From Minisyncoccota bacterium (GTDB lineage Bacteria > Patescibacteriota > Microgenomatia > UBA1400 > PJMF01): DNA of 64,000 nucleotides. Of this stretch, positions 40,818-57,201 are shown in pieces; positions within the stretch are counted from its first letter, which is position 1; the number at the start of each line of letters is the position of its first letter. The notes beneath the pieces were generated by a model. It searched no databases and was not told where the DNA came from. It saw nothing but the letters and a program-made list of their open reading frames with translations. Both the position numbers and the translations under genes were made by a program. Where the stretch lies: positions 42,074-106,073 of the forward strand of contig JAACWQ010000004.1 of the NCBI GenBank assembly GCA_009991965.1, in the 5' to 3' direction.

Positions 40818-42545
40818 ATGCAAACCAATATCAAACTTCAAAACCTTAAATGGATCATTTACTGTAGAAAAAGTACCGACACCGAAGATAAACAGATAGA
40901 ATCGTTGCCTGCCCAAAAGAAAGAATTGCTTGATCTTGCTAAACGTAGCGGATTTAATCAGATAGTAAAGATATACACCGAATCGCACTCGGCATTTCAC
41001 CCAGGTAGACCAGAGTTTAATGACATGATTGATCGTCTTTATAAGGGCGAGGCAAACGCAGTGATGGTATGGGCAGGTAATAGAATTGCTCGAAACTCCA
41101 AAGATGCTGGTAGCTTTATTTATGCGATGGATCAGGGGAAAATACTGGCCGTGAGAACTATCGGTGGCACTTACTTTAACACCCCAGACAACAAATTCGC
41201 ACTCAGCATAGACTTCACAGTTTCCAAAAAATCGTCTGATGATCTGAGCGAAGCGGTGCTCAGAGGAAATAGGGTTAAGTTTTTTGAAAACAAGGAATGG
41301 ATTGGACCAGCCAAGCAAGGCTTTATAAATTTTACCGAGCCATATACAAAAAAACGTGACGTTCAGGTCGACCAAGATAGATTCAATCTACTGCAGCTAG
41401 CAGGAGGAAAAATAGTGAGTGGCGAACTAACACCATTAGAATCACTAAATTGGCTGAATCATGATATGGGATATCGAACTCTTCCTCAGAGGAAACAAGG
41501 TGGTGGTCCACTATCAGAAACAACTTTCTATAATGTATTGTCCGATCCCTTTTACTATGGTGTCATGAGCAGAAATGTTCAAGGTGAGGTCCAAGAAGCA
41601 GAACATAAATACTCCAAGATGTTTAGCAAAACAGAGTGGGACATTATCCAGGTCAGACTTGGTAAAAAAAGCCGGTCAAAACAAAAGAAGCATGACTTCC
41701 CTTACAAGGGGGTCATGAGCTGTGGGGAGTGCGGAGGATTTGTGACGGCCGAAGAAAAATGGCAGATCATCTGTCCTGCTTGTAAAACAAAGTTTGCCAA
41801 GACCAAAAAACGCACAAGCTGCATCTCTTGCGGTTTGGAAATTGATCAAATGAAAAATCCCACTATCTTGAACTACGTTTATTATCACTGCACTAAAAAA
41901 GTTAACAAAAACTGTGCCCAGGGTTATCTTGAAATGAGCGAACTAGAACGGCAGATTGATTCGGAACTCCAGCGATTCGAGATTGACCCAGACTTCAAGG
42001 ACTGGGCAATCAACCACTTGAGTGAGCTGAATGAACACGAGTCGAAGCAAGATGAGCGAGCTACTGTACGCAATACTGGCAATTATGAGAACCTGAAAAC
42101 ACAACTTAGGCGGATGACAAAACACCGGTTCTCTGACTCGTACGAGGAATCAAGCCAAGAAGAGAAAGAGGTTTTCGAAGATGAACTAAATAAGCTCAAG
42201 GCACAAATAGAAACAACAAAAGATAGCATTAAAAATACTGATGAGAAACAGTATGATTGGATTGAGCTATCAAGGAAAACGTTCGAGTTTGCTTGTTATT
42301 CCAGATACTGGTTCCGTCACGGGGACATTAAAACTAAGACACAAATCCTCCAGTTACTTGGTCAGAACCTAAAGCTGTATAACAAGAAAGTGTTGGTAGA
42401 CGAGGATAATCTTTGGTGGCTAATTGAAAAAGCAAAGAAAGAAGTTGAAATCTTAGGAGTCAGGGTCGAACCTACAAAAAAAGCGAGTCAATCAAGCTTT
42501 AATGCCCTCTTTGATCCCGCCATTCCCACATTGTTGCGGGACTAG
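40818..42545 (+). CDS. large serine recombinase
   Basis: N-terminal resolvase catalytic domain (IIYCRKSTDTEDKQ, Ser nucleophile), recombinase domain, zinc ribbon (CGECGG...CPAC; CISCG...HC), coiled coil. Confidence 0.8.
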   Translation: MQTNIKLQNLKWIIYCRKSTDTEDKQIESLPAQKKELLDLAKRSGFNQIVKIYTESHSAFHPGRPEFNDMIDRLYKGEANAVMVWAGNRIARNSKDAGSFIYAMDQGKILAVRTIGGTYFNTPDNKFALSIDFTVSKKSSDDLSEAVLRGNRVKFFENKEWIGPAKQGFINFTEPYTKKRDVQVDQDRFNLLQLAGGKIVSGELTPLESLNWLNHDMGYRTLPQRKQGGGPLSETTFYNVLSDPFYYGVMSRNVQGEVQEAEHKYSKMFSKTEWDIIQVRLGKKSRSKQKKHDFPYKGVMSCGECGGFVTAEEKWQIICPACKTKFAKTKKRTSCISCGLEIDQMKNPTILNYVYYHCTKKVNKNCAQGYLEMSELERQIDSELQRFEIDPDFKDWAINHLSELNEHESKQDERATVRNTGNYENLKTQLRRMTKHRFSDSYEESSQEEKEVFEDELNKLKAQIETTKDSIKNTDEKQYDWIELSRKTFEFACYSRYWFRHGDIKTKTQILQLLGQNLKLYNKKVLVDEDNLWWLIEKAKKEVEILGVRVEPTKKASQSSFNALFDPAIPTLLRD

Positions 42546-42602
42546 GGGTCGAACCTAGCCTGTGAGATTATGAGCCTCACGTGCACCGTACACTATCCCG
42601 CG
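42534..42602 (-). tRNA. tRNA-like gene, anticodon CAT; C1xA72 mismatch suggests an initiator tRNA-fMet; D-loop unusually short
   Basis: Reverse strand folds as acceptor CGCGGGA/TCCCGCA, D stem GTGT/GCAC, anticodon stem-loop TGAGG-CTCATAA-TCTCA, T arm CTAGG-TTCGACC-CCTAG; 3' end overlaps the recombinase stop codon. Confidence 0.45.
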
Positions 42603-42665
42603 GTCAAGATTATACAGCTTATCTGGTAAAGGTCAAAAGTTTGGTATACTATAGCCTGGTTTCGT

Positions 42666-42739
42666 GCCAGGGTAGCTCAGTTGGTTAGAGCATGGGATTC
42701 ATAAACCCAAGGTCGAGAGTTCGAATCTCTCCCCTGGTA
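42666..42739 (+). tRNA. tRNA-Met (anticodon CAT; possibly the Ile2/lysidine isoacceptor)
   Basis: GCCAGGG acceptor, D arm GCTC-AGTTGGTTA-GAGC, anticodon loop TTCATAA, T arm GAGAG-TTCGAAT-CTCTC, discriminator A. Confidence 0.8.
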
Positions 42740-42745
42740 CACTGT

Positions 42746-50752: not shown

Positions 50753-53464
50753 TTATCTTGCTGGTGGTACAAAATTGAAGTTTTTCAGCGTAGCCGTGAC
50801 TTGATTCACCCAGGGAGTAATTTGTGCTGCTCTTTGATCTGCAGTCATGCCAGAAACCTGATCCATCAGCGTGTTAATGCTTGCTACCGCTTGTTTGGAT
50901 GATTCACCTAGTTGATTCGTTTGCTCAAGCGTCAAAACCTGCTGTGGTGCAGCTACATCAAATTTTTCCACCACTTCTCTGATCTGGTGCATTCTTTCGG
51001 GAGTAAAGTACTGCTGTACTGCTTTTATGGCAGTGTCTAGTTGTTCAGAACCCTGTGGGGACTGTTGGAAAAGCTTGCTCAACTGTTCCGCAGTTTGAGC
51101 GAATGAATTATTTATCACTACGGCTGCGTCTGGTGTTACTTGAGCACCTTGTGAGGTTGCATCTGTAATCGTACGCAGGACCTCATCTGATAGTATTTTG
51201 TTTATTGGACTAGCAGCTATTTCACCTGCTGGTGGTGTTACTACAACAGCACTGGCTTGGGTTTCATTCAAAAGCTTATAACCAACCTCTGCCACGGACT
51301 CTCCCAACGCTCCACTAAAAAATGCAAAAAGAAATCGTGATCTGGCTTGAACACCATGCGCAATGCCACTTGCTCCCTGAGCCATCTTTCTGAGGAAAGC
51401 AGGCAGAGCTTCATTTTCACTCATACCAGCTAATCCTCCGCGCACGTAGGTGCCTAGCACTGTTTCGCCCAATGCCGCTGTTGTCAACAAACCCGCACTA
51501 GATAAAGTTATTCTTGTTCCTGGATCAACTCCCATTACACCAAATGCAGCTGAAGCAGCTGCGCCAGTTAATACTGTACCTGTTGTCTGCAGAGCCTTTT
51601 TGAAAAATTCTTTTTTACCAGAAGATAAGCTAGAAGCCTCGACAGCTTTTTGAGAAGCATCTAACTGTTCACTCTCGAAGGGGCGTTCTTGAGCGTGTTC
51701 GGCATTGGGATGAATTTTGGCTTTTTCGATGAGTTTTCTAAATTTTTTCTCTGATTCAGCATCAAATCCCAATTCTCCAAACGTATCTATCGCATGTTGC
51801 GCTAAAGCAAGTATTAGTTCACCTACTGCGCGATTGCTTTTTGCTGTTCCATCCTTGATCATCACATCGGTAACTCGAGAAACATATTCCAAATCCAACT
51901 TAGATAGCCGCTTTTCTTCTTCACGAGCACCATGTTCCGCTTTTAGTTTAGCTTCAATTTCTTGTTGTCTAGCAGACGAAGCCATTTCACCAGATTCAAC
52001 TGTCTGTTTGGCTACTGTGTCAGGAGACTTTGGCGCCTTACCTGGGAAGAATTTCTGCCACCATCCCCCCTGCTTTTTCGGTTTTTCTGTAGCTGGCTGT
52101 TGAACTTCTTGCTGTAATTTTGCAAGTTTTTCCTTGTCTGCCGCAATTTCACGATTGAGCTGTAAAATTGCCGAGGAATCTGTAGCAATCTTAGCTTGCT
52201 CTAGTTTTATTTCATTAGCTTGGATTCTGTCAGAAATTGTGTTGCTATCTTCTGCTTGTGTCGCTTTTTCTTCAAGAGGTTGTACTTCCTGTTGAAATTC
52301 TTCCTCAGTATTTTTGACCTCACCAGCTTCTGGCACTCCATACGCATCAATCAACTGATCTGCATCTGAAATTAGTAGTTCAGACAGTGCTGGTTTCACC
52401 TTAGAAGCAAACCACCCTCTCATTTTGCTCAAAAAACCTTGCCTTGCCGGTGGCTTCCATTCTGTATCCAAAAAGCTAGCTACTATTTCCCCGATAAGCT
52501 GAGATCGTTCGCTATCATTCAAAATTTTGAATGATTCTTGATATTTTCTGTCAAGAGCTTTTTGTAATTCTTGAGACAAGACTTCATTGGTCAAAAGTTG
52601 ATCAAAAGCAGTTTTCAAACCTGCTTCTATAGCAGTGCGGAGTTCTTCTGGCTCGCCCGCACCATCAGTCAGAGCGGTGATAAATCCACCTTTGTAGGTT
52701 GCAACGACATTGAGTCGATCTGCCAATGCATTCCAGACCGGTTTTCCCGAATTCTTTAAAATCTTAAGTAATCTGCTGTATCTGTTTTCTGGAGATTTTG
52801 GAATACCAGCGAGAGGATTTTCTACCTTGGCTGTTGGCTCTGCTTGCGTTTCAGCATGAACTATTGTTTGGTCGACAGTCTGCGAAGCAGCTTCCAAACG
52901 AGTAGGATCGAGCAATGAAAGCAGATAGTGGACTTGATTAGAATCGGGGAGAATTTTAACACCCGTCTCAGTGTCATAATTACTCACTACTTGCCACTGC
53001 TGAGCAGCCGTACTTACATCTTTACTGAACCGTATACTCGATGCCAAAGCCCTTTGTCCTGAGAGCGTTATTTCAATTATTCCGGAGGGTTCTACTGTAA
53101 CTGTATATGAAAAATCTTCAGCTTTGCTTGTAAAAGTGGCGCTCTCACCTTGCTTCGCACCCAGCTGCAATAGCCGTGCATCGAGCTCCGCTAACTTGGC
53201 CATATCACTAGGATCAGTTATCTCAAAACCTGATTTTTGCTCATCATTAGCAGCTGGTGGCCTACCTTCCACCACCTCGCCACCGAGACTGTGACCTCTC
53301 TCTAGGTGCTCTTCTATCGCTGCGTCACGTTCTTTATCAAATGATGTGAAATGACCACCAGAATCTCTGACACGTCCCGCATCACTGTTCCAAGACTGTT
53401 GCCAAGCAGGTGCTCCATTTCCTTCTACCATACTATCTTCCTTGTGTACGTTAACCGCGTTCAT
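50753..53464 (-). CDS. large hypothetical protein (coiled-coil, low complexity, Gly/Ala-rich hydrophobic C-terminal segment)
   Basis: 903-aa uninterrupted ORF; no signal peptide or recognisable catalytic motif. Confidence 0.5.
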   Translation of the reverse strand: MNAVNVHKEDSMVEGNGAPAWQQSWNSDAGRVRDSGGHFTSFDKERDAAIEEHLERGHSLGGEVVEGRPPAANDEQKSGFEITDPSDMAKLAELDARLLQLGAKQGESATFTSKAEDFSYTVTVEPSGIIEITLSGQRALASSIRFSKDVSTAAQQWQVVSNYDTETGVKILPDSNQVHYLLSLLDPTRLEAASQTVDQTIVHAETQAEPTAKVENPLAGIPKSPENRYSRLLKILKNSGKPVWNALADRLNVVATYKGGFITALTDGAGEPEELRTAIEAGLKTAFDQLLTNEVLSQELQKALDRKYQESFKILNDSERSQLIGEIVASFLDTEWKPPARQGFLSKMRGWFASKVKPALSELLISDADQLIDAYGVPEAGEVKNTEEEFQQEVQPLEEKATQAEDSNTISDRIQANEIKLEQAKIATDSSAILQLNREIAADKEKLAKLQQEVQQPATEKPKKQGGWWQKFFPGKAPKSPDTVAKQTVESGEMASSARQQEIEAKLKAEHGAREEEKRLSKLDLEYVSRVTDVMIKDGTAKSNRAVGELILALAQHAIDTFGELGFDAESEKKFRKLIEKAKIHPNAEHAQERPFESEQLDASQKAVEASSLSSGKKEFFKKALQTTGTVLTGAAASAAFGVMGVDPGTRITLSSAGLLTTAALGETVLGTYVRGGLAGMSENEALPAFLRKMAQGASGIAHGVQARSRFLFAFFSGALGESVAEVGYKLLNETQASAVVVTPPAGEIAASPINKILSDEVLRTITDATSQGAQVTPDAAVVINNSFAQTAEQLSKLFQQSPQGSEQLDTAIKAVQQYFTPERMHQIREVVEKFDVAAPQQVLTLEQTNQLGESSKQAVASINTLMDQVSGMTADQRAAQITPWVNQVTATLKNFNFVPPAR

Positions 53465-53509: not shown

Positions 53510-56500
53510 CTATATCGGACACGCTCCGCTCTCACACTGCAAATGCACGTAGTCGATGTCTTCAAATAGTGATTCATCCTTTTCAATCTCATCGAGTACA
53601 CGCATGAACTCACTGATGGTCACCGGTTGCTCTGGCTGGTACTCATACGCGGTCGCATCTTGTTGTGGCATAACCGAGCAACACTTGACTAAACCCTGGT
53701 ATTTACGCACCATCTCAGCATACTTTTTGAAAGTGATTTTGATGGGATCGTACTTGAGCGTGTAAGACACTTGGTTGCCCGTATCTTCGAGTGGCTTGTT
53801 GTTTTCATCGACACCAACAATCCAGTATTTTTCGAGAAGCATCAGCCATTTGTACTGTTCTTCTGGGGTAGCCTCACCGGCAGTGACGAGTTCACCATTC
53901 ATACCCAGTCTGCAAATCAGTGGTTGGGTGGGAAATCCGACGGCCGTCGATCCTTGGTAACTTTGCAAGACTTTAATCGGATAGTGCTTGTCTTTGTATT
54001 TTTTCACTTGCGGATCATCGGAGCGATACTGCACCCAGCGAATATACTCACGCATACTTGGCAAATGAGCGCCCTCGGTTAGCGCAAACAGCTTGGAAAT
54101 CGTACCCGATGGTTTGATGGTCGTATTGGTATGTGGCACTACTACCTTCAGTTTTTTGGAGTAGTTCTCGGCCTCATCAACCACGGCACGCTTGAAACGA
54201 GCAATCGTTTGCCAAAATGCTTGTGATTTTCCTTCGTCAATCAAATCTCGGAAAGAAAATCCAAAGGTGTTCCAGGCAAATTCGTGGATACCAGTCATAC
54301 CTACACCAATCCGGTTGGTGCGCTTGACCTCACGGTTGTACAAACTATCCATGTAGGTGTTGACCCGAATCAGTGCGCGCGTGGCCGCACGAAAACCTTC
54401 TTCGGCGTCATCTATCGTTGGCGCATAGTACGGCACTACATCGGCAATCACACAGTAGCCACCAAGCATGTTGAGGGAAATCTCGCCGCAAGGGTTGGGA
54501 ATCTGTGAGTATAGCTTGGCGCCTGCATTGCGAGCCAAGTGTGAGAGCATTTTTTCGGTGCGCTTGAGCGGCTGATATTTTTTGCTCTGGGCATATTTAC
54601 CATCTTGGTAACCCTCATAGCCAGCATCATTTTGCACCAATCGGTGTTGATTAATAAATCCCGGTTCACCCGTACCATCTTCGTAACTTGCTTTGAGAAT
54701 CATTTCTAGCACTTTGCGAGCGTGGCTACTTTTTTGTTTCCAAAATTTCTCATCGACCGCTACTGAGTTATTGGCACTCCACAAAAAGCCACCGCGCTTG
54801 ATCGAGATAAAATCAAAAATCTCAGGATCAGTCCACACCTTGGTCGCGATACGGGCACTTCTCCTAGCCCCACCCACCAAAACACATTCTGCCAAGTAGT
54901 GATCGACAAACATGGCTTGTTTCCAAAGTGGTAAATCAGCACCCTTGATAGTGGCAAGCTTGTCAATCGAGTTCATCAGTGGCTTAGGACCAGAAGATGG
55001 CCGATCTTGCATCCCTTTAATTGGCATACCTTTGGCGCGTACTTTGGAAAAATCTAGAATTAAGAGATCATCTTTAAACTTTTTTTCGTACGCCATGATC
55101 TCGATCATCTCAACTGCCTGCGCCCAACCTTCTCGGCTATCGGGCACTTCAAACCAGTGAATATTATCACCATCGCCATATTTGTGTTTGGCATCGCGCA
55201 CACTCTCATCGACCCCCCAAACAAAATCTGGGTGCTCTGCCGACATGACACAGCGCACATTGGGCATGTTATCCCAATTGACTATGCACATGTCATCGTC
55301 GTATGGTCGGCCGACTCCTGAGCCATTCATGAGCAAGTAAAAAAGCGTGTAAGAACTTGATGCCGTACTGCAATTGCCCGTCAACAATCCATTTGCTAAA
55401 ACAAAACCGGTGGTGACTGGTTCTTCGACACAATAGACTTCTTCTTCGCCGACTGGCTCGATAGTGGCAACCTTGCGTACAGCTGAACGAGACAACCGCA
55501 CACAATGCAAGTCCTTACCATTGGGATAACTACCATCACCCTCTTTTCTCTCGAGAACTCGGTGTGAAGTAATAATATATCCAGCATATGCTGCGTAGTC
55601 TTCAAGCCAGGCTATTGCATCCTCTCTGGTTGTGGATATTTCAATACTTTTGGTAGTAGTAAGAGTTTTTGAACCATCAGCCAACCACCACCCTTTAATA
55701 AAGCCAGCAATGTACGTCGGATCGAGTGTGAATGGCAAATCTTTTAGGAAAGATTTTCTGCCTAAATATGCAACTGGATCACCAGCAGCATGTTTTGGAT
55801 AAGAAACAACGTAGTTTTCAAAGTATTTGAGAAATTTTTTGTCTCCACCACACAAACGAATGGCAGGATAGTCTCTGCCTTGAGCAGCTATCACGTCTGG
55901 ATAATCGCGTCGATTTTTATGCGCTGAGCCGTCACCAAAAATAAGTCCGTGTTGAATACCTTCTAGGGCTTCTTCTTCAAGTGTTGGTGCTGTTGCCAAG
56001 GATTGACCAACTTGCAAATCATCAGTTATTGAGCCGTCTTCGAGAAACCAGCGGTGATTGCGGGTTGCTAGTACCTCATGTGAGTAGTTGCTTGTGCCTG
56101 TTTTTGGTACAAATGTTATCTTAAAGAGCTTTTGCTTGCCGTACGCTTTTACATTCGCCTCTCTCCACTCCCCATCAGCTGCTTTGACTGTAACGACTTG
56201 TCCAACTACTTTGTGAATCTCTATTGGTCCATTCTCTTGAGTCAAAATTTTGGTATTTTTTTCGAGGCAATTAGTAAAAACTTCCATATTGCGCTTTGGC
56301 TGCGTTTTATCTCCGTGTTGCAGATGTCTGCCAGACATGAGAACAGAACCATTGGCAATATGCTTGGCCAAAAGCTTACGCTCTGCTGTTTTGTGCGCGG
56401 GGAATTGTGAACCCAAGAGAGCAGTATTTCCCAACGCAACGCGCTCTGCCACCTCGTGCCAAGTTTCCCAGCGCTCTCGCTTGGTGTTCCTATCGATTAT

Positions 56501-56608
56501 CCTACGCAAATATGTTCGTCTTGCTACTGCTCTGCCCATGCCGTTATCGAGTTTGCGATCGGTGAACTTCATTTTTACTTTTGGTAAGGTTGGTGTAGCT
56601 GATGACAT
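53510..56608 (-). CDS. nrdJ: class II (adenosylcobalamin-dependent) ribonucleotide reductase NrdJ containing an intein
   Basis: NPCGEI active-site motif; C-terminal redox pair QCESGACPI; intein block A (CLEKNTKILT), block B (TRNHRWF), LAGLIDADG-like motifs, block G ending GN followed by +1 Cys. Confidence 0.85.
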   Translation of the reverse strand: MSSATPTLPKVKMKFTDRKLDNGMGRAVARRTYLRRIIDRNTKRERWETWHEVAERVALGNTALLGSQFPAHKTAERKLLAKHIANGSVLMSGRHLQHGDKTQPKRNMEVFTNCLEKNTKILTQENGPIEIHKVVGQVVTVKAADGEWREANVKAYGKQKLFKITFVPKTGTSNYSHEVLATRNHRWFLEDGSITDDLQVGQSLATAPTLEEEALEGIQHGLIFGDGSAHKNRRDYPDVIAAQGRDYPAIRLCGGDKKFLKYFENYVVSYPKHAAGDPVAYLGRKSFLKDLPFTLDPTYIAGFIKGWWLADGSKTLTTTKSIEISTTREDAIAWLEDYAAYAGYIITSHRVLERKEGDGSYPNGKDLHCVRLSRSAVRKVATIEPVGEEEVYCVEEPVTTGFVLANGLLTGNCSTASSSYTLFYLLMNGSGVGRPYDDDMCIVNWDNMPNVRCVMSAEHPDFVWGVDESVRDAKHKYGDGDNIHWFEVPDSREGWAQAVEMIEIMAYEKKFKDDLLILDFSKVRAKGMPIKGMQDRPSSGPKPLMNSIDKLATIKGADLPLWKQAMFVDHYLAECVLVGGARRSARIATKVWTDPEIFDFISIKRGGFLWSANNSVAVDEKFWKQKSSHARKVLEMILKASYEDGTGEPGFINQHRLVQNDAGYEGYQDGKYAQSKKYQPLKRTEKMLSHLARNAGAKLYSQIPNPCGEISLNMLGGYCVIADVVPYYAPTIDDAEEGFRAATRALIRVNTYMDSLYNREVKRTNRIGVGMTGIHEFAWNTFGFSFRDLIDEGKSQAFWQTIARFKRAVVDEAENYSKKLKVVVPHTNTTIKPSGTISKLFALTEGAHLPSMREYIRWVQYRSDDPQVKKYKDKHYPIKVLQSYQGSTAVGFPTQPLICRLGMNGELVTAGEATPEEQYKWLMLLEKYWIVGVDENNKPLEDTGNQVSYTLKYDPIKITFKKYAEMVRKYQGLVKCCSVMPQQDATAYEYQPEQPVTISEFMRVLDEIEKDESLFEDIDYVHLQCESGACPI
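55373..56269 (-). mobile_element. intein with LAGLIDADG homing-endonuclease domain inside nrdJ (residues 114-412)
   Basis: Cys1; motifs IQHGLIFGDGS and IAGFIKGWWLADGS; C-terminal ...VLANGLLTGN followed by Cys+1; a non-canonical Gly replaces the penultimate His. Confidence 0.75.
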
Positions 56609-57078
56609 TAAGTTCCTTGTGGGGTTGGTACTGTGGTTAATCGATCAAGTTCATTGCGGAAGTCTTCGATACTATCAAAATCTCGATAGACACTGGCAAA
56701 GAGAAGATATGATAATTCATCAAGTTTGCGCAGACGATTGAGAACCAAGTTGCCGATCTCCCAACTTTTTACTTCTGCGGTCTCTTTGCGACGCAAGCGG
56801 CGCTCTACATCGTTGAGTAATTCGTTAACATCGCTCATAGGAATTGGTCGCTTCCAGGTTGCTTTCATCAGGCCTCGTTGTAATTTCTCTCGAGAGAAGT
56901 CTTCTTTTGTGCCGTCTTTTTTTAACACTTTGAGATCAATGCCTTCGATGCGCTCATAGGTCGTAAAGCGCTTTTCGCACAAACCACATTGGCGGCGGCG
57001 GCGGATTGTGGTCTGGTCTTCTGCCTCGCGGGAATCAACAACGCTGGTCTCCGCAGTATCGCAGTACGGACATTTCAT
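56608..57078 (-). CDS. nrdR: transcriptional repressor NrdR
   Basis: Zinc ribbon (KCPYC...CGLC) and ATP-cone domain; directly upstream of and overlapping nrdJ. Confidence 0.85.
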   Translation of the reverse strand: MKCPYCDTAETSVVDSREAEDQTTIRRRRQCGLCEKRFTTYERIEGIDLKVLKKDGTKEDFSREKLQRGLMKATWKRPIPMSDVNELLNDVERRLRRKETAEVKSWEIGNLVLNRLRKLDELSYLLFASVYRDFDSIEDFRNELDRLTTVPTPQGT

Positions 57079-57108
57079 AAACAATTCCTACATATGTATT
57101 ATGTAAAA

Positions 57109-57156
57109 ACACTTCAAGTTGTGTTTTTAGACAAACTGATGCACTATATGTTGTGC
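57109..57156. promoter_or_regulatory. tandem NrdR boxes (ACACTTCAAGTTGTGT and GCACTATATGTTGTGC), 32 bp apart
   Basis: Two 16-bp palindromes with ACAC...GTGT-type arms and AT-rich centres, 31-78 bp upstream of the nrdR start; they match the published NrdR-box palindrome at 12/16 and 13/16 positions. Confidence 0.55.
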
Positions 57157-57183
57157 TTCTCAGTTCTTTTGGAGAACAAGAAT

Positions 57184-57201
57184 CTCACATTCTGTTGTGA
57201 G
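57184..57201 (-). terminator. possible terminator hairpin (CTCACA-N6-TGTGAG)
   Basis: 6-bp stem downstream of the 57238-57783 gene; the following U-tract is weak. Confidence 0.3.

Follow-up and report, generated by a model that had tools for sequence, protein, structure and literature searches.

A probably active LAGLIDADG intein ending in Gly-Asn in the class II ribonucleotide reductase gene nrdJ of a Patescibacteria genome

Is the block of 299 amino acids (aa) that interrupts the ribonucleotide reductase (RNR) gene nrdJ of a Patescibacteria genome a working intein, and if so, how could it splice with Gly-Asn at its end, and does it still move? These questions are raised by a stretch of 64,000 nucleotides from a Minisyncoccota bacterium (contig JAACWQ010000004.1), referred to here at its full length of 64 kb as the window. 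A first-pass annotation, made from the letters alone, had described in it a NrdJ open reading frame (ORF) of 1032 aa with an intein at residues 114-412, and the description holds on closer analysis. From sequence comparison we conclude with good confidence that this segment is a true intein, which is competent to splice and probably remains mobile, in an nrdJ of the Pacebacteria/Microgenomates type of Patescibacteria, placed between Asn113 and the equivalent of Cys119 of the class II enzyme RTPR. Four features went beyond the earlier description: the WCT triplet (explained below) in an intein that also has Cys1, the lack of His at F:13, the identity of Cys+1 with the RTPR Cys119 equivalent, and a huge intein family centred on RNRs and phages.

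Every motif of the insert was recovered at its residue number by script and re-translation: CLEKNTKILT at 114-123, TRNHRWF at 182-188, GLIFGDGS at 221-228, IAGFIKGWWLADGS at 300-313 and NGLLTGN at 406-412, followed by Cys413. In-silico excision of residues 114-412, which had been set beforehand as the refutation test, leaves a contiguous NrdJ reading ...RNMEVFTN-CSTASSSY..., identical across the junction to intein-less homologues; these read ...RNMEVFTNCSTASSSY... and produce a clean alignment gap of 299 columns. A search of 5.8 billion proteins added eight alleles with the intein (984-1118 aa, 65-99% identical) and over 100 without it, the latter about 733 aa long and sharing 83-89% identity with the extein; nine intein-bearing alleles, the window copy included, are available in total, and all have the insertion at the same site. 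Additionally, 80 species-representative loci from Pacebacteria, Woesebacteria, Microgenomates and other Patescibacteria were compared at the DNA level. An uninterrupted gene of about 2.2 kb reading EVFTN/CSTASS at the site was found in 78 of them (the slash, here and below, marks an intein boundary or insertion point), and the intein-bearing form of about 3.1 kb occurs only in L001 and L002. The intein-less site is strongly conserved, with the consensus ...AAYATGGARGTNTTYACNAAY/TGYAGYACNGC..., and reads ...AATATGGAAGTTTTCACCAAT/TGTAGTACCGCATCAAGT... in the nrdJ of locus L003. Since the insert is an in-frame block of 299 aa with exact junctions, is missing from 78 of the 80 loci and occupies a shared site in nine alleles, chance can be excluded as its origin.

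The extein identifies the host protein. The TIGR02505 (RTPR) model matches the precursor with E=1.3e-63 and 215 bits, below its equivalog cut-off of 340 bits, PF21995 (RNR-II insertion domain) scores above its own cut-off, and the only PDB match of the extein is 1L1L, the RTPR of L. leichmannii (E=3.5e-31 for the sequence by itself, improving to 7e-39 when an extein profile is used). By these alignments the host is most probably a monomeric, RTPR-type, adenosylcobalamin-dependent class II RNR, and it looks like a divergent RTPR subfamily typical of Patescibacteria. The class II hallmarks named in the first-pass annotation, NPCGEI and QCESGACPI, both align to 1L1L, as does GGYC, which falls on RTPR Cys419 in the HMMER alignment, and the junction cysteine of ...FTN-C (Cys+1) aligns on RTPR Cys119 in a weak HMMER segment of 4.9 bits. 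Equivalents of RTPR C119, C408, C419, C731 and C736 are all present and invariant in 12 homologues, that of C119 through the weak segment. In RTPR, Booker and colleagues are said to have assigned in 1994 the thiyl radical to Cys408 and the role of a reducing pair to Cys119 and Cys419. The intein directly precedes this catalytic cysteine and would borrow it as its +1 nucleophile, so that the unspliced precursor should be inactive, unable to reduce nucleotides before the intein has removed itself.

The residues expected of a splicing intein were all found in the insert (block numbering after Tori et al. 2010, PMC2807308): a nucleophile in block A, TxxH in block B, a block F of the VYC...GF type, the C-terminal Asn412 and Cys413. 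The block A, B and G residues on which the original assignment relied align to DnaE inteins and are conserved family-wide. The three usual helpers of class 1 inteins, Asp F:4, His F:13 and His G:6, are replaced by Cys, Thr and Gly, respectively. When the intein sequence alone was searched against the PDB, only matches of E~1 to DnaE inteins were obtained, with a sensible block alignment (VYCVEEPVTTGFVLANGLLTGN versus VYDIGVESDHNFALSDGFIASN); a family profile of 25 sequences lifted the DnaE inteins to E~1e-5, and I-DmoI and the VMA inteins matched weakly. AlphaFold2 (AF2), run on a 25-sequence alignment, returned a model with pLDDT 87.9 and pTM 0.87, in which intein residues 116-130, after motif 1, have low confidence. 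Foldseek comparison of this model with the PDB placed PI-SceI (E=2e-11) and PI-PfuI (E=3e-8) at the top, followed by the Ssp/Npu DnaB, DnaE and RecA mini-inteins and by I-DmoI on the central domain, and gave a probability of 1.00 for more than 25 intein structures, in support of the HINT fold. The claim of a full-length endonuclease with two LAGLIDADG motifs is upheld by the same model, since both Asp residues are present and the predicted domain resembles PI-SceI, PI-PfuI and I-DmoI in its alpha-beta-beta-alpha-beta-beta-alpha fold. As modelled, then, the insert is a true HINT domain into which a LAGLIDADG endonuclease with two motifs has been inserted. Coordinates are collected in Table 1.

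Table 1. Features of the nrdR-nrdJ locus, in window coordinates, with what each assignment is based on.
Feature	Coordinates	Strand	Description and basis
nrdJ precursor ORF	53510..56608	-	1032 aa; RTPR-type class II ribonucleotide reductase plus intein; TIGR02505, PF21995, PDB 1L1L
N-extein	56270..56608	-	Residues 1-113, ending ...RNMEVFTN with Asn at -1; alignment to intein-less alleles
Intein	55373..56269	-	299 aa, precursor residues 114-412; HINT splicing domain with inserted LAGLIDADG endonuclease; exact in-frame insertion, AF2, Foldseek
Block A, Cys1	56267..56269	-	Predicted N-terminal splice nucleophile; re-translated; invariant in 61/61 and 133/133 relatives
Block B, TRNHRW	56048..56065	-	Thr B:7 (T182), His B:10 (H185), Trp B:12; invariant family-wide; aligned to DnaE block B
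LAGLIDADG domain (approximate)	55550..55972	-	Intein residues ~100-240; AF2 secondary structure; Foldseek PI-SceI, I-DmoI; LAGLIDADG_3 E=0.003, below cut-off
LAGLIDADG motif 1, GLIFGDGS	55925..55948	-	Predicted catalytic Asp, kept in 58/61 and 130/133
LAGLIDADG motif 2, IAGFIKGWWLADGS	55670..55711	-	Contains WWLADGS; predicted catalytic Asp, kept in 60/61 and 129/133
Block F, VYCVEEPVTTGF	55403..55438	-	Cys F:4 (Cys280, 55430-55432); Thr at the usual His F:13 position; aligned to DnaE VYD...DHNF
Block G, NGLLTGN	55373..55393	-	Thr G:5, Gly G:6 replacing the penultimate His, Asn G:7 (Asn412); re-translated
C-extein	53510..55372	-	Residues 413-1032 plus stop; first residue Cys+1 (Cys413, 55370-55372)
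NPCGEI	54479..54496	-	Residues 705-710; thiyl-radical Cys loop (Cys408 in RTPR); HMMER alignment to 1L1L 405-411
Redox tail QCESGACPI	53513..53539	-	Residues 1024-1032; RTPR Cys731/Cys736; aligned to C-terminal CEGGACPI of 1L1L
nrdR	56608..57078	-	Transcriptional regulator directly upstream of nrdJ; TIGR00244 E=5.8e-55; ATG at 57078

The window intein belongs to a family whose signature bears on both its splicing and its mobility. An exhaustive HMMER search of 1.84 billion representatives at 50% identity matched 2,547 proteins at E<=1e-3, of which 535 also reach E<=1e-30, and residues were tallied in 61 closer relatives and in 133 diverse full-length representatives that are at most 50% identical (194 sequences together). 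Cys at position 1, Thr at B:7, His at B:10, Trp at B:12, Cys at F:4, Thr or Ser at G:5 and Cys at +1 are found in 133/133 (194/194 for F:4 and +1 when the closer relatives are counted), followed by Asn at G:7 (132/133), Asn at -1 (124/133) and Gly at G:6 (110/133); the counts for the two LAGLIDADG Asp residues are given in Table 1. F:13 is variable, and His is the commonest residue there yet present in just 31 of the 133. Conservation follows the same pattern in the 61 closer relatives, and the signature of the family can be written N/C...TxxHxW...C...T-G-N/C. Replacement of the penultimate His by Gly, which the first-pass annotation had singled out, is real at G:6; it is not peculiar to this copy, since Gly is the norm of the family and has a precedent elsewhere (PMC5050341). 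Judged by these tallies the Gly-Asn terminus is a family trait and not a lesion of the window copy.

Regarding mobility, the endonuclease would be expected to cut intein-less nrdJ at the conserved consensus site given above, and the intein to be copied in by repair (homing). Identity-based clustering of the exteins showed that the nearest neighbours of intein-bearing alleles are intein-less (P0009, 87% identical to the window extein; P0094, 92% identical to that of P0002). The relationships of inteins and exteins also disagree in both directions: the window copy and P0006 share 81% identity in the intein and 69% in the extein, whereas the values are 64% and 80% for the window copy and P0005, and 52% and 77% for P0006 and P0008. 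Between the window copy and its 99%-identical counterpart P0001, 11 synonymous and 4 non-synonymous substitutions separate the inteins, a ratio of non-synonymous to synonymous rates (dN/dS) of 0.105 based on just 15 substitutions, and 43 and 3 separate the exteins (dN/dS 0.018). P0001 is the only allele to yield such a ratio, which is unusable against L001, L002 and P0002 because of synonymous saturation; against distant alleles the intein has a proportion of non-synonymous differences (pN) of ~0.25, with that of synonymous ones (pS) saturated at ~0.78. The patchy distribution, the incongruence of intein and extein and the intein dN/dS of ~0.1 argue for an active, horizontally moving element, and on these comparisons we favour an element that is held functional by selection and spreads horizontally, with phages probably acting as its reservoir and as the source for the reduced candidate-phylum genome. 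Its occurrence in a streamlined genome, presented in the first-pass annotation as worth noting, is not in itself surprising, and it is the family context that lifts it slightly above routine. Candidate-phylum genomes also carry endonuclease-bearing rRNA introns.

Signs of endonuclease decay are seen elsewhere in the family: P0003 has Asp replaced by Asn in LAGLIDADG motif 1 (GLIFGNGS), and the inteins of P0168 and P0169, found in gp55-like hosts, are reduced to 260-270 aa by partial loss of the endonuclease domain, with all splicing residues kept. Together with the degenerate P0166 (described below), the rarity of the intein (2/80 species loci) and the low modelling confidence of residues 116-130 past motif 1, such decay lends some plausibility to a different history, in which splicing is intact and the endonuclease is dead, the intein being a vertically inherited passenger under loss and not a homing element. 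We regard this history as unlikely, while giving it more weight than any other alternative. In the window copy the domain is full-length, retains its two catalytic Asp residues and evolves under purifying selection, and vertical descent plus loss leaves the two-way incongruence of intein and extein unexplained. Moreover, intein dN equals extein dN against P0002 (0.122 and 0.133), which would fit an intein that was shared more recently, but is about twice the extein dN against L001 and L002.

How such an intein would splice is the second question. The class 3 prototype has no nucleophile at position 1 and can dispense with Thr B:7 (PMC2807308). A class 1 N-S acyl shift is argued for here because Cys1 and Thr B:7 are absolutely conserved among sequences no more than 50% identical, and the alignments make a class 1 start appear most likely, in which Cys F:4 and Thr G:5 would have a coordinating function. 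The family profile scores 32 bits against Ssp DnaE (class 1), -0.1 bits against the class 3 prototype of mycobacteriophage Bethlehem, whose sequence was recovered from its terminase gene, and 2.2 bits against the Bethlehem RDF intein; no class 3 structure was found among the PDB sequence matches of this profile at E<=10, and MchDnaB-1 (class 3) appears only at rank 49 of the Foldseek structural matches. According to this model, splicing would begin with the N-S acyl shift of Cys1, activated by Thr B:7 and His B:10; the N-extein would then be passed to Cys+1, Asn412 would cyclise without the usual His G:6 and His F:13, and an S-N shift would finish the peptide bond. Coordination, which in ordinary inteins is the task of Asp F:4 and the histidines, would fall here to the invariant Cys of block F and to Thr G:5. 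In reviews Cys ranks second in frequency at F:4 (PMC4031507), and class 1 inteins with Cys F:4 are reported to form a polyphyletic set that lies outside the class 3 clade (PMC3196547). Cyclisation of Asn without His G:6 and His F:13 has, by analogy, experimental precedent in other inteins: a natural penultimate-Gly mycobacteriophage intein is impaired in splicing when Gly is changed to His (PMC5050341), and the class 3 intein AceL NrdHF splices in minutes without His F:13 and His G:6 (PMC7891396).

The WCT triplet (Trp B:12, Cys F:4, Thr G:5) is complete in an intein that also has Cys1 and Cys+1, and this combination invites another route. In class 3 inteins the block-F cysteine, and not residue 1, attacks the N-terminal junction, and WCT defines the class (PMC2807308). 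Here Cys280 (F:4), positioned by His B:10 and Thr G:5, could in the same way attack the N-terminal junction or take the acyl group from Cys1, so that a branched intermediate on block F would precede transfer to Cys+1 and Cys1 would be dispensable or a mere first relay station. The triplet is kept in 194/194 relatives (with G:5 tallied as Thr/Ser), WCT co-varies with the class 3 mechanism, in which the F:4 Cys is obligatory (PMC2807308), Cys-His-Thr forms a protease-like triad in class 3 structures (PMC7664689), and the absence of both histidines is common to AceL NrdHF. Additionally, Tori et al. counted 37 WCT inteins, of which 3 have Ser1 or Cys1 and were left as open cases (PMC2807308). Nevertheless, a class 3 or relay route seems doubtful for this family, less probable than loss of the endonuclease. 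Cys1 is found in 194/194 relatives, whereas class 3 was defined operationally in a later survey by the lack of Cys at position 1 together with Cys F:4 (PMC7891396). Thr B:7 is invariant here yet dispensable in the class 3 prototype, to which the profile shows no detectable similarity, in contrast to a clear one to the class 1 DnaE inteins; when WCT was grafted onto a class 1 intein, no class 3 splicer resulted (PMC7664689), and the polyphyly of class 1 inteins with Cys F:4, outside the class 3 clade, points the same way. The +1 residue of class 3 inteins is almost always Ser or Thr, with one Cys exception, Bvi IcmO (PMC2807308).

A bolder proposal, to which we attach a similarly low likelihood, takes the family as a whole: a large group that keeps Cys1 of class 1 invariant alongside the class 3 set (His B:10, Trp B:12, Cys F:4, Thr G:5), Cys+1 and Asn-1 could splice by a relay or with dual nucleophiles, or could be the stock from which class 3 descended. 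Three thiols might act in the order Cys1, Cys F:4, Cys+1, or either nucleophile might serve, and the family might be what survives, in phages, of the class 1 inteins whose loss of Cys1 gave rise to class 3. Splicing could also be redox-gated, with three active-site cysteines lying beside a redox-active RNR cysteine. If true, a hybrid family with Cys1 and WCT would contradict the exclusiveness of WCT to class 3.

Returning to the preferred reading of a genuine, mobile class 1 intein, several observations weigh against it. TIGR01445 scores only 16.9 bits on the intein (E=0.009, cut-off 24.5) and PF14528 (LAGLIDADG_3) 18.2 bits (E=0.003, cut-off 22.5), both below threshold, and for the PF14890 intein model no match was reported on the precursor. 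The alignment of Cys+1 on RTPR Cys119 depends on the weak segment, and the close-pair dN/dS on few substitutions. The G+C content at third codon positions (GC3) is 0.34 in the intein and 0.50 in the extein, against 0.41 +/- 0.065 in the genes of the window; as a sign of foreign origin it was rejected as weak, both values lying inside the window gene spread. Finally, WCT has been called class 3-specific (PMC7664689), in which case the F:4 Cys may be the nucleophile and the class 1 route is insecure. The sub-threshold scores of the curated models are a gap in model coverage and not a defining biological feature. They could, with the missing canonical penultimate His and His F:13, be taken to mean a degenerate, non-splicing HINT remnant in an nrdJ that is a pseudogene or has an inactive product, which is highly improbable given the intact ORF, the conservation of all nucleophiles and RNR catalytic residues, the low dN/dS of extein and intein, the same architecture in nine alleles of 65-99% identity, the conserved nrdR-nrdJ operon and the lack of a second RNR among the genes of the window.

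The wider family is found in diverse hosts. A search with the intein alone led to 57 clusters in other hosts, most of them proteins of ~450-520 aa which, when spliced in silico, become late sigma factors like gp55 of phage T4 (phrog_234, E=1.1e-64). In the gp55-like hosts (P0124-P0165) the intein site reads ...DGIEN/C...TGN/C.YI.NFD, and we know of no gp55 intein described before. In P0171-P0177 inteins of this family split a 4Fe-4S ferredoxin within CxxCxxCxxxCP (PEECID/C...T[GSRA]N/CGACEPECP); a cluster-ligand cysteine serves as the +1 residue there, His is retained at F:13, and G:6 varies between G, S, R and A. Another RNR is also among the hosts of the 57 clusters. P0166, from Neorhizobium sp. 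(305 aa), is a free-standing homologue of the whole intein without exteins; it has neither Cys1 (MSLDSKTKILT) nor terminal Asn (LLTGVGA), carries Phe at F:4 and keeps both LAGLIDADG motifs intact, and may be a domesticated or stranded intein-derived endonuclease. Among the hosts sampled from the wide HMMER search, RNRs of differing architecture make up the majority, and a helicase and a glycosyltransferase-like protein also occur. In P0121 a second intein begins 15 residues past the first (LLLMSG/CFRKETPVLMADGS), and in P0193, P0220, P0244 and P0249 the family intein is followed directly by another intein that starts with Cys (...TGN/CFAGDTKII in several).

Members also occur in cultured phages. 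The NrdD of Klebsiella phage vB_KpM_FBKp34 belongs to the family (...TN/CLGRET...ANHRW...VWC...VVTGN/CC...) and is not annotated as containing an intein. The RTPR of Thermobifida phage P318 (L085, MK240575.1) has a family intein at the same RTPR site (HLFN/C) that ends in TGQ/C; its C-terminal Gln instead of Asn is rare and occurs also in 1/133 representatives, and the host gene is annotated only as ribonucleoside-triphosphate reductase. Searches of sampled multi-intein RNRs with the Pfam (PF14890, PF14528) and NCBIfam (TIGR01445) intein models at E<=1e-5 reported other inteins and not those of this family, and PHROGs has no family for the intein itself. The family is very large, tied to RNRs and phages, and below the cut-offs of the Pfam/NCBIfam intein models tried.

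Regarding the surroundings of the gene, the nrdR stop and the nrdJ start overlap by 1 nt. Read from the ATG listed in Table 1, nrdR encodes 156 aa, as called in the related contig L083, and the nrdR-nrdJ gene order is kept in L083 and L084; no further RNR gene was seen in the 64-kb window. Three palindromes lie upstream of nrdR on the minus strand (window 57107-57201): CTCACAACAGAATGTGAG (57184-57201), GCACAACATATAGTGC (57141-57156) and AAACACAACTTGAAGTGTTT (57107-57126), the latter two with ~30 bp between their centres. They are candidate NrdR boxes, resembling the consensus, and this arrangement suggests autoregulation of an nrdR-nrdJ operon through them. A B12 riboswitch upstream of nrdJ was also considered; the Rfam matches in the window are two tRNAs only, and regulation of nrdJ through NrdR is more likely than through a B12 riboswitch. 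The two tRNAs, the only matches at Rfam gathering level in the 64 kb, form a divergent pair of tRNA-Met (CAT) genes 63 bp apart (window 42533-42740). Directly downstream of nrdJ, an ORF of 903 aa on the minus strand (window 50753-53464) has a high content of Ala, Glu, Gln, Lys and Ser; long parts of it are of low complexity, and one segment rich in Gly and Ala appears to be hydrophobic.

A LAGLIDADG intein in an RNR is a known and ordinary kind of element. The immediate gain is a correction of annotation, as public data carry close homologues of the nrdJ precursor as "hypothetical protein" or without a name: by its sequence the gene encodes an essential RNR that would depend on protein splicing for activity and that hosts a selfish element probably derived from phages. 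Beyond this locus, the invariant N/C...TxxHxW...C...TGN/C signature provides a natural test set for Asn cyclisation without either assisting histidine, and the same family tests whether WCT dictates the class 3 pathway or coexists with a class 1 start. The members in cultured phages (NrdD of vB_KpM_FBKp34, RTPR of P318) make the mechanism directly testable, and compact Cys1/Cys+1 inteins that tolerate Gly-Asn termini may be useful engineering scaffolds.

Among known systems, RNR is a classic intein host with insertions at conserved active-site motifs (PMC3653736), as the first-pass annotation had said of the host in general. Other RNR inteins include those of Pyrococcus RIR1, of the RIR1 of phages SPbeta and P1201, of A. 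aeolicus NrdA and the GOS NrdJ-1 split intein. The last of these is a structural match to the window intein (8ubs, Foldseek). The best structural matches are PI-SceI (yeast VMA1) and PI-PfuI, which have the same overall plan and likewise combine a HINT domain with an inserted double-motif LAGLIDADG endonuclease, Cys1, a C-terminal Asn and an essential enzyme as host. They share only 10-14% sequence identity with the window intein and measure ~454 aa against 299 aa; unlike them, the window intein has no obvious extra DNA-recognition region. Its Cys F:4, Gly G:6 and Thr F:13 also differ from the Asp and two His that are usual in canonical class 1 inteins, as a general statement on the class has it (PMC4031507).

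By profile, the closest solved relatives (E~1e-5) are the cyanobacterial DnaE inteins (Ssp, Npu), which are class 1 and split. As in the window intein, Cys1, Cys+1 and the block B TxxH are present and the penultimate His is missing (Ala or Ser stands before Asn), and in them Asn is known to cyclise with no His at G:6; the NrdJ-1 intein ends in His-Asn. The DnaE inteins differ in being split mini-inteins without endonuclease, and in having Asp F:4, His F:13 and Phe B:12, hence no WCT. The class 3 inteins (the Bethlehem 'DnaB'/terminase prototype, Msm/Mch DnaB-1 and AceL NrdHF) do share Trp B:12, Cys F:4 and Thr G:5 with the window intein, are associated with phages as this family is, and mostly carry a LAGLIDADG endonuclease; AceL NrdHF even resides in an RNR-related gene and resembles the window intein in its missing histidines. 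Class 3 inteins lack Cys, Ser or Thr at position 1 and nearly always have Ser or Thr at +1, whereas Cys1 and Cys+1 are invariant in this family. The Bethlehem RDF intein (phosphoesterase gp52), which was spliced experimentally and is treated as class 1, shares Cys1, Cys at F:4 (VWC) and the ending ...LTGN with the window intein. Its penultimate Gly is natural and its replacement by His leads to accumulation of the precursor (PMC5050341), and LAGLIDADG motifs are described for it in the same paper. It differs from the window intein by Val B:12, Ser at +1 and another host protein, and the profile similarity between the two is negligible.

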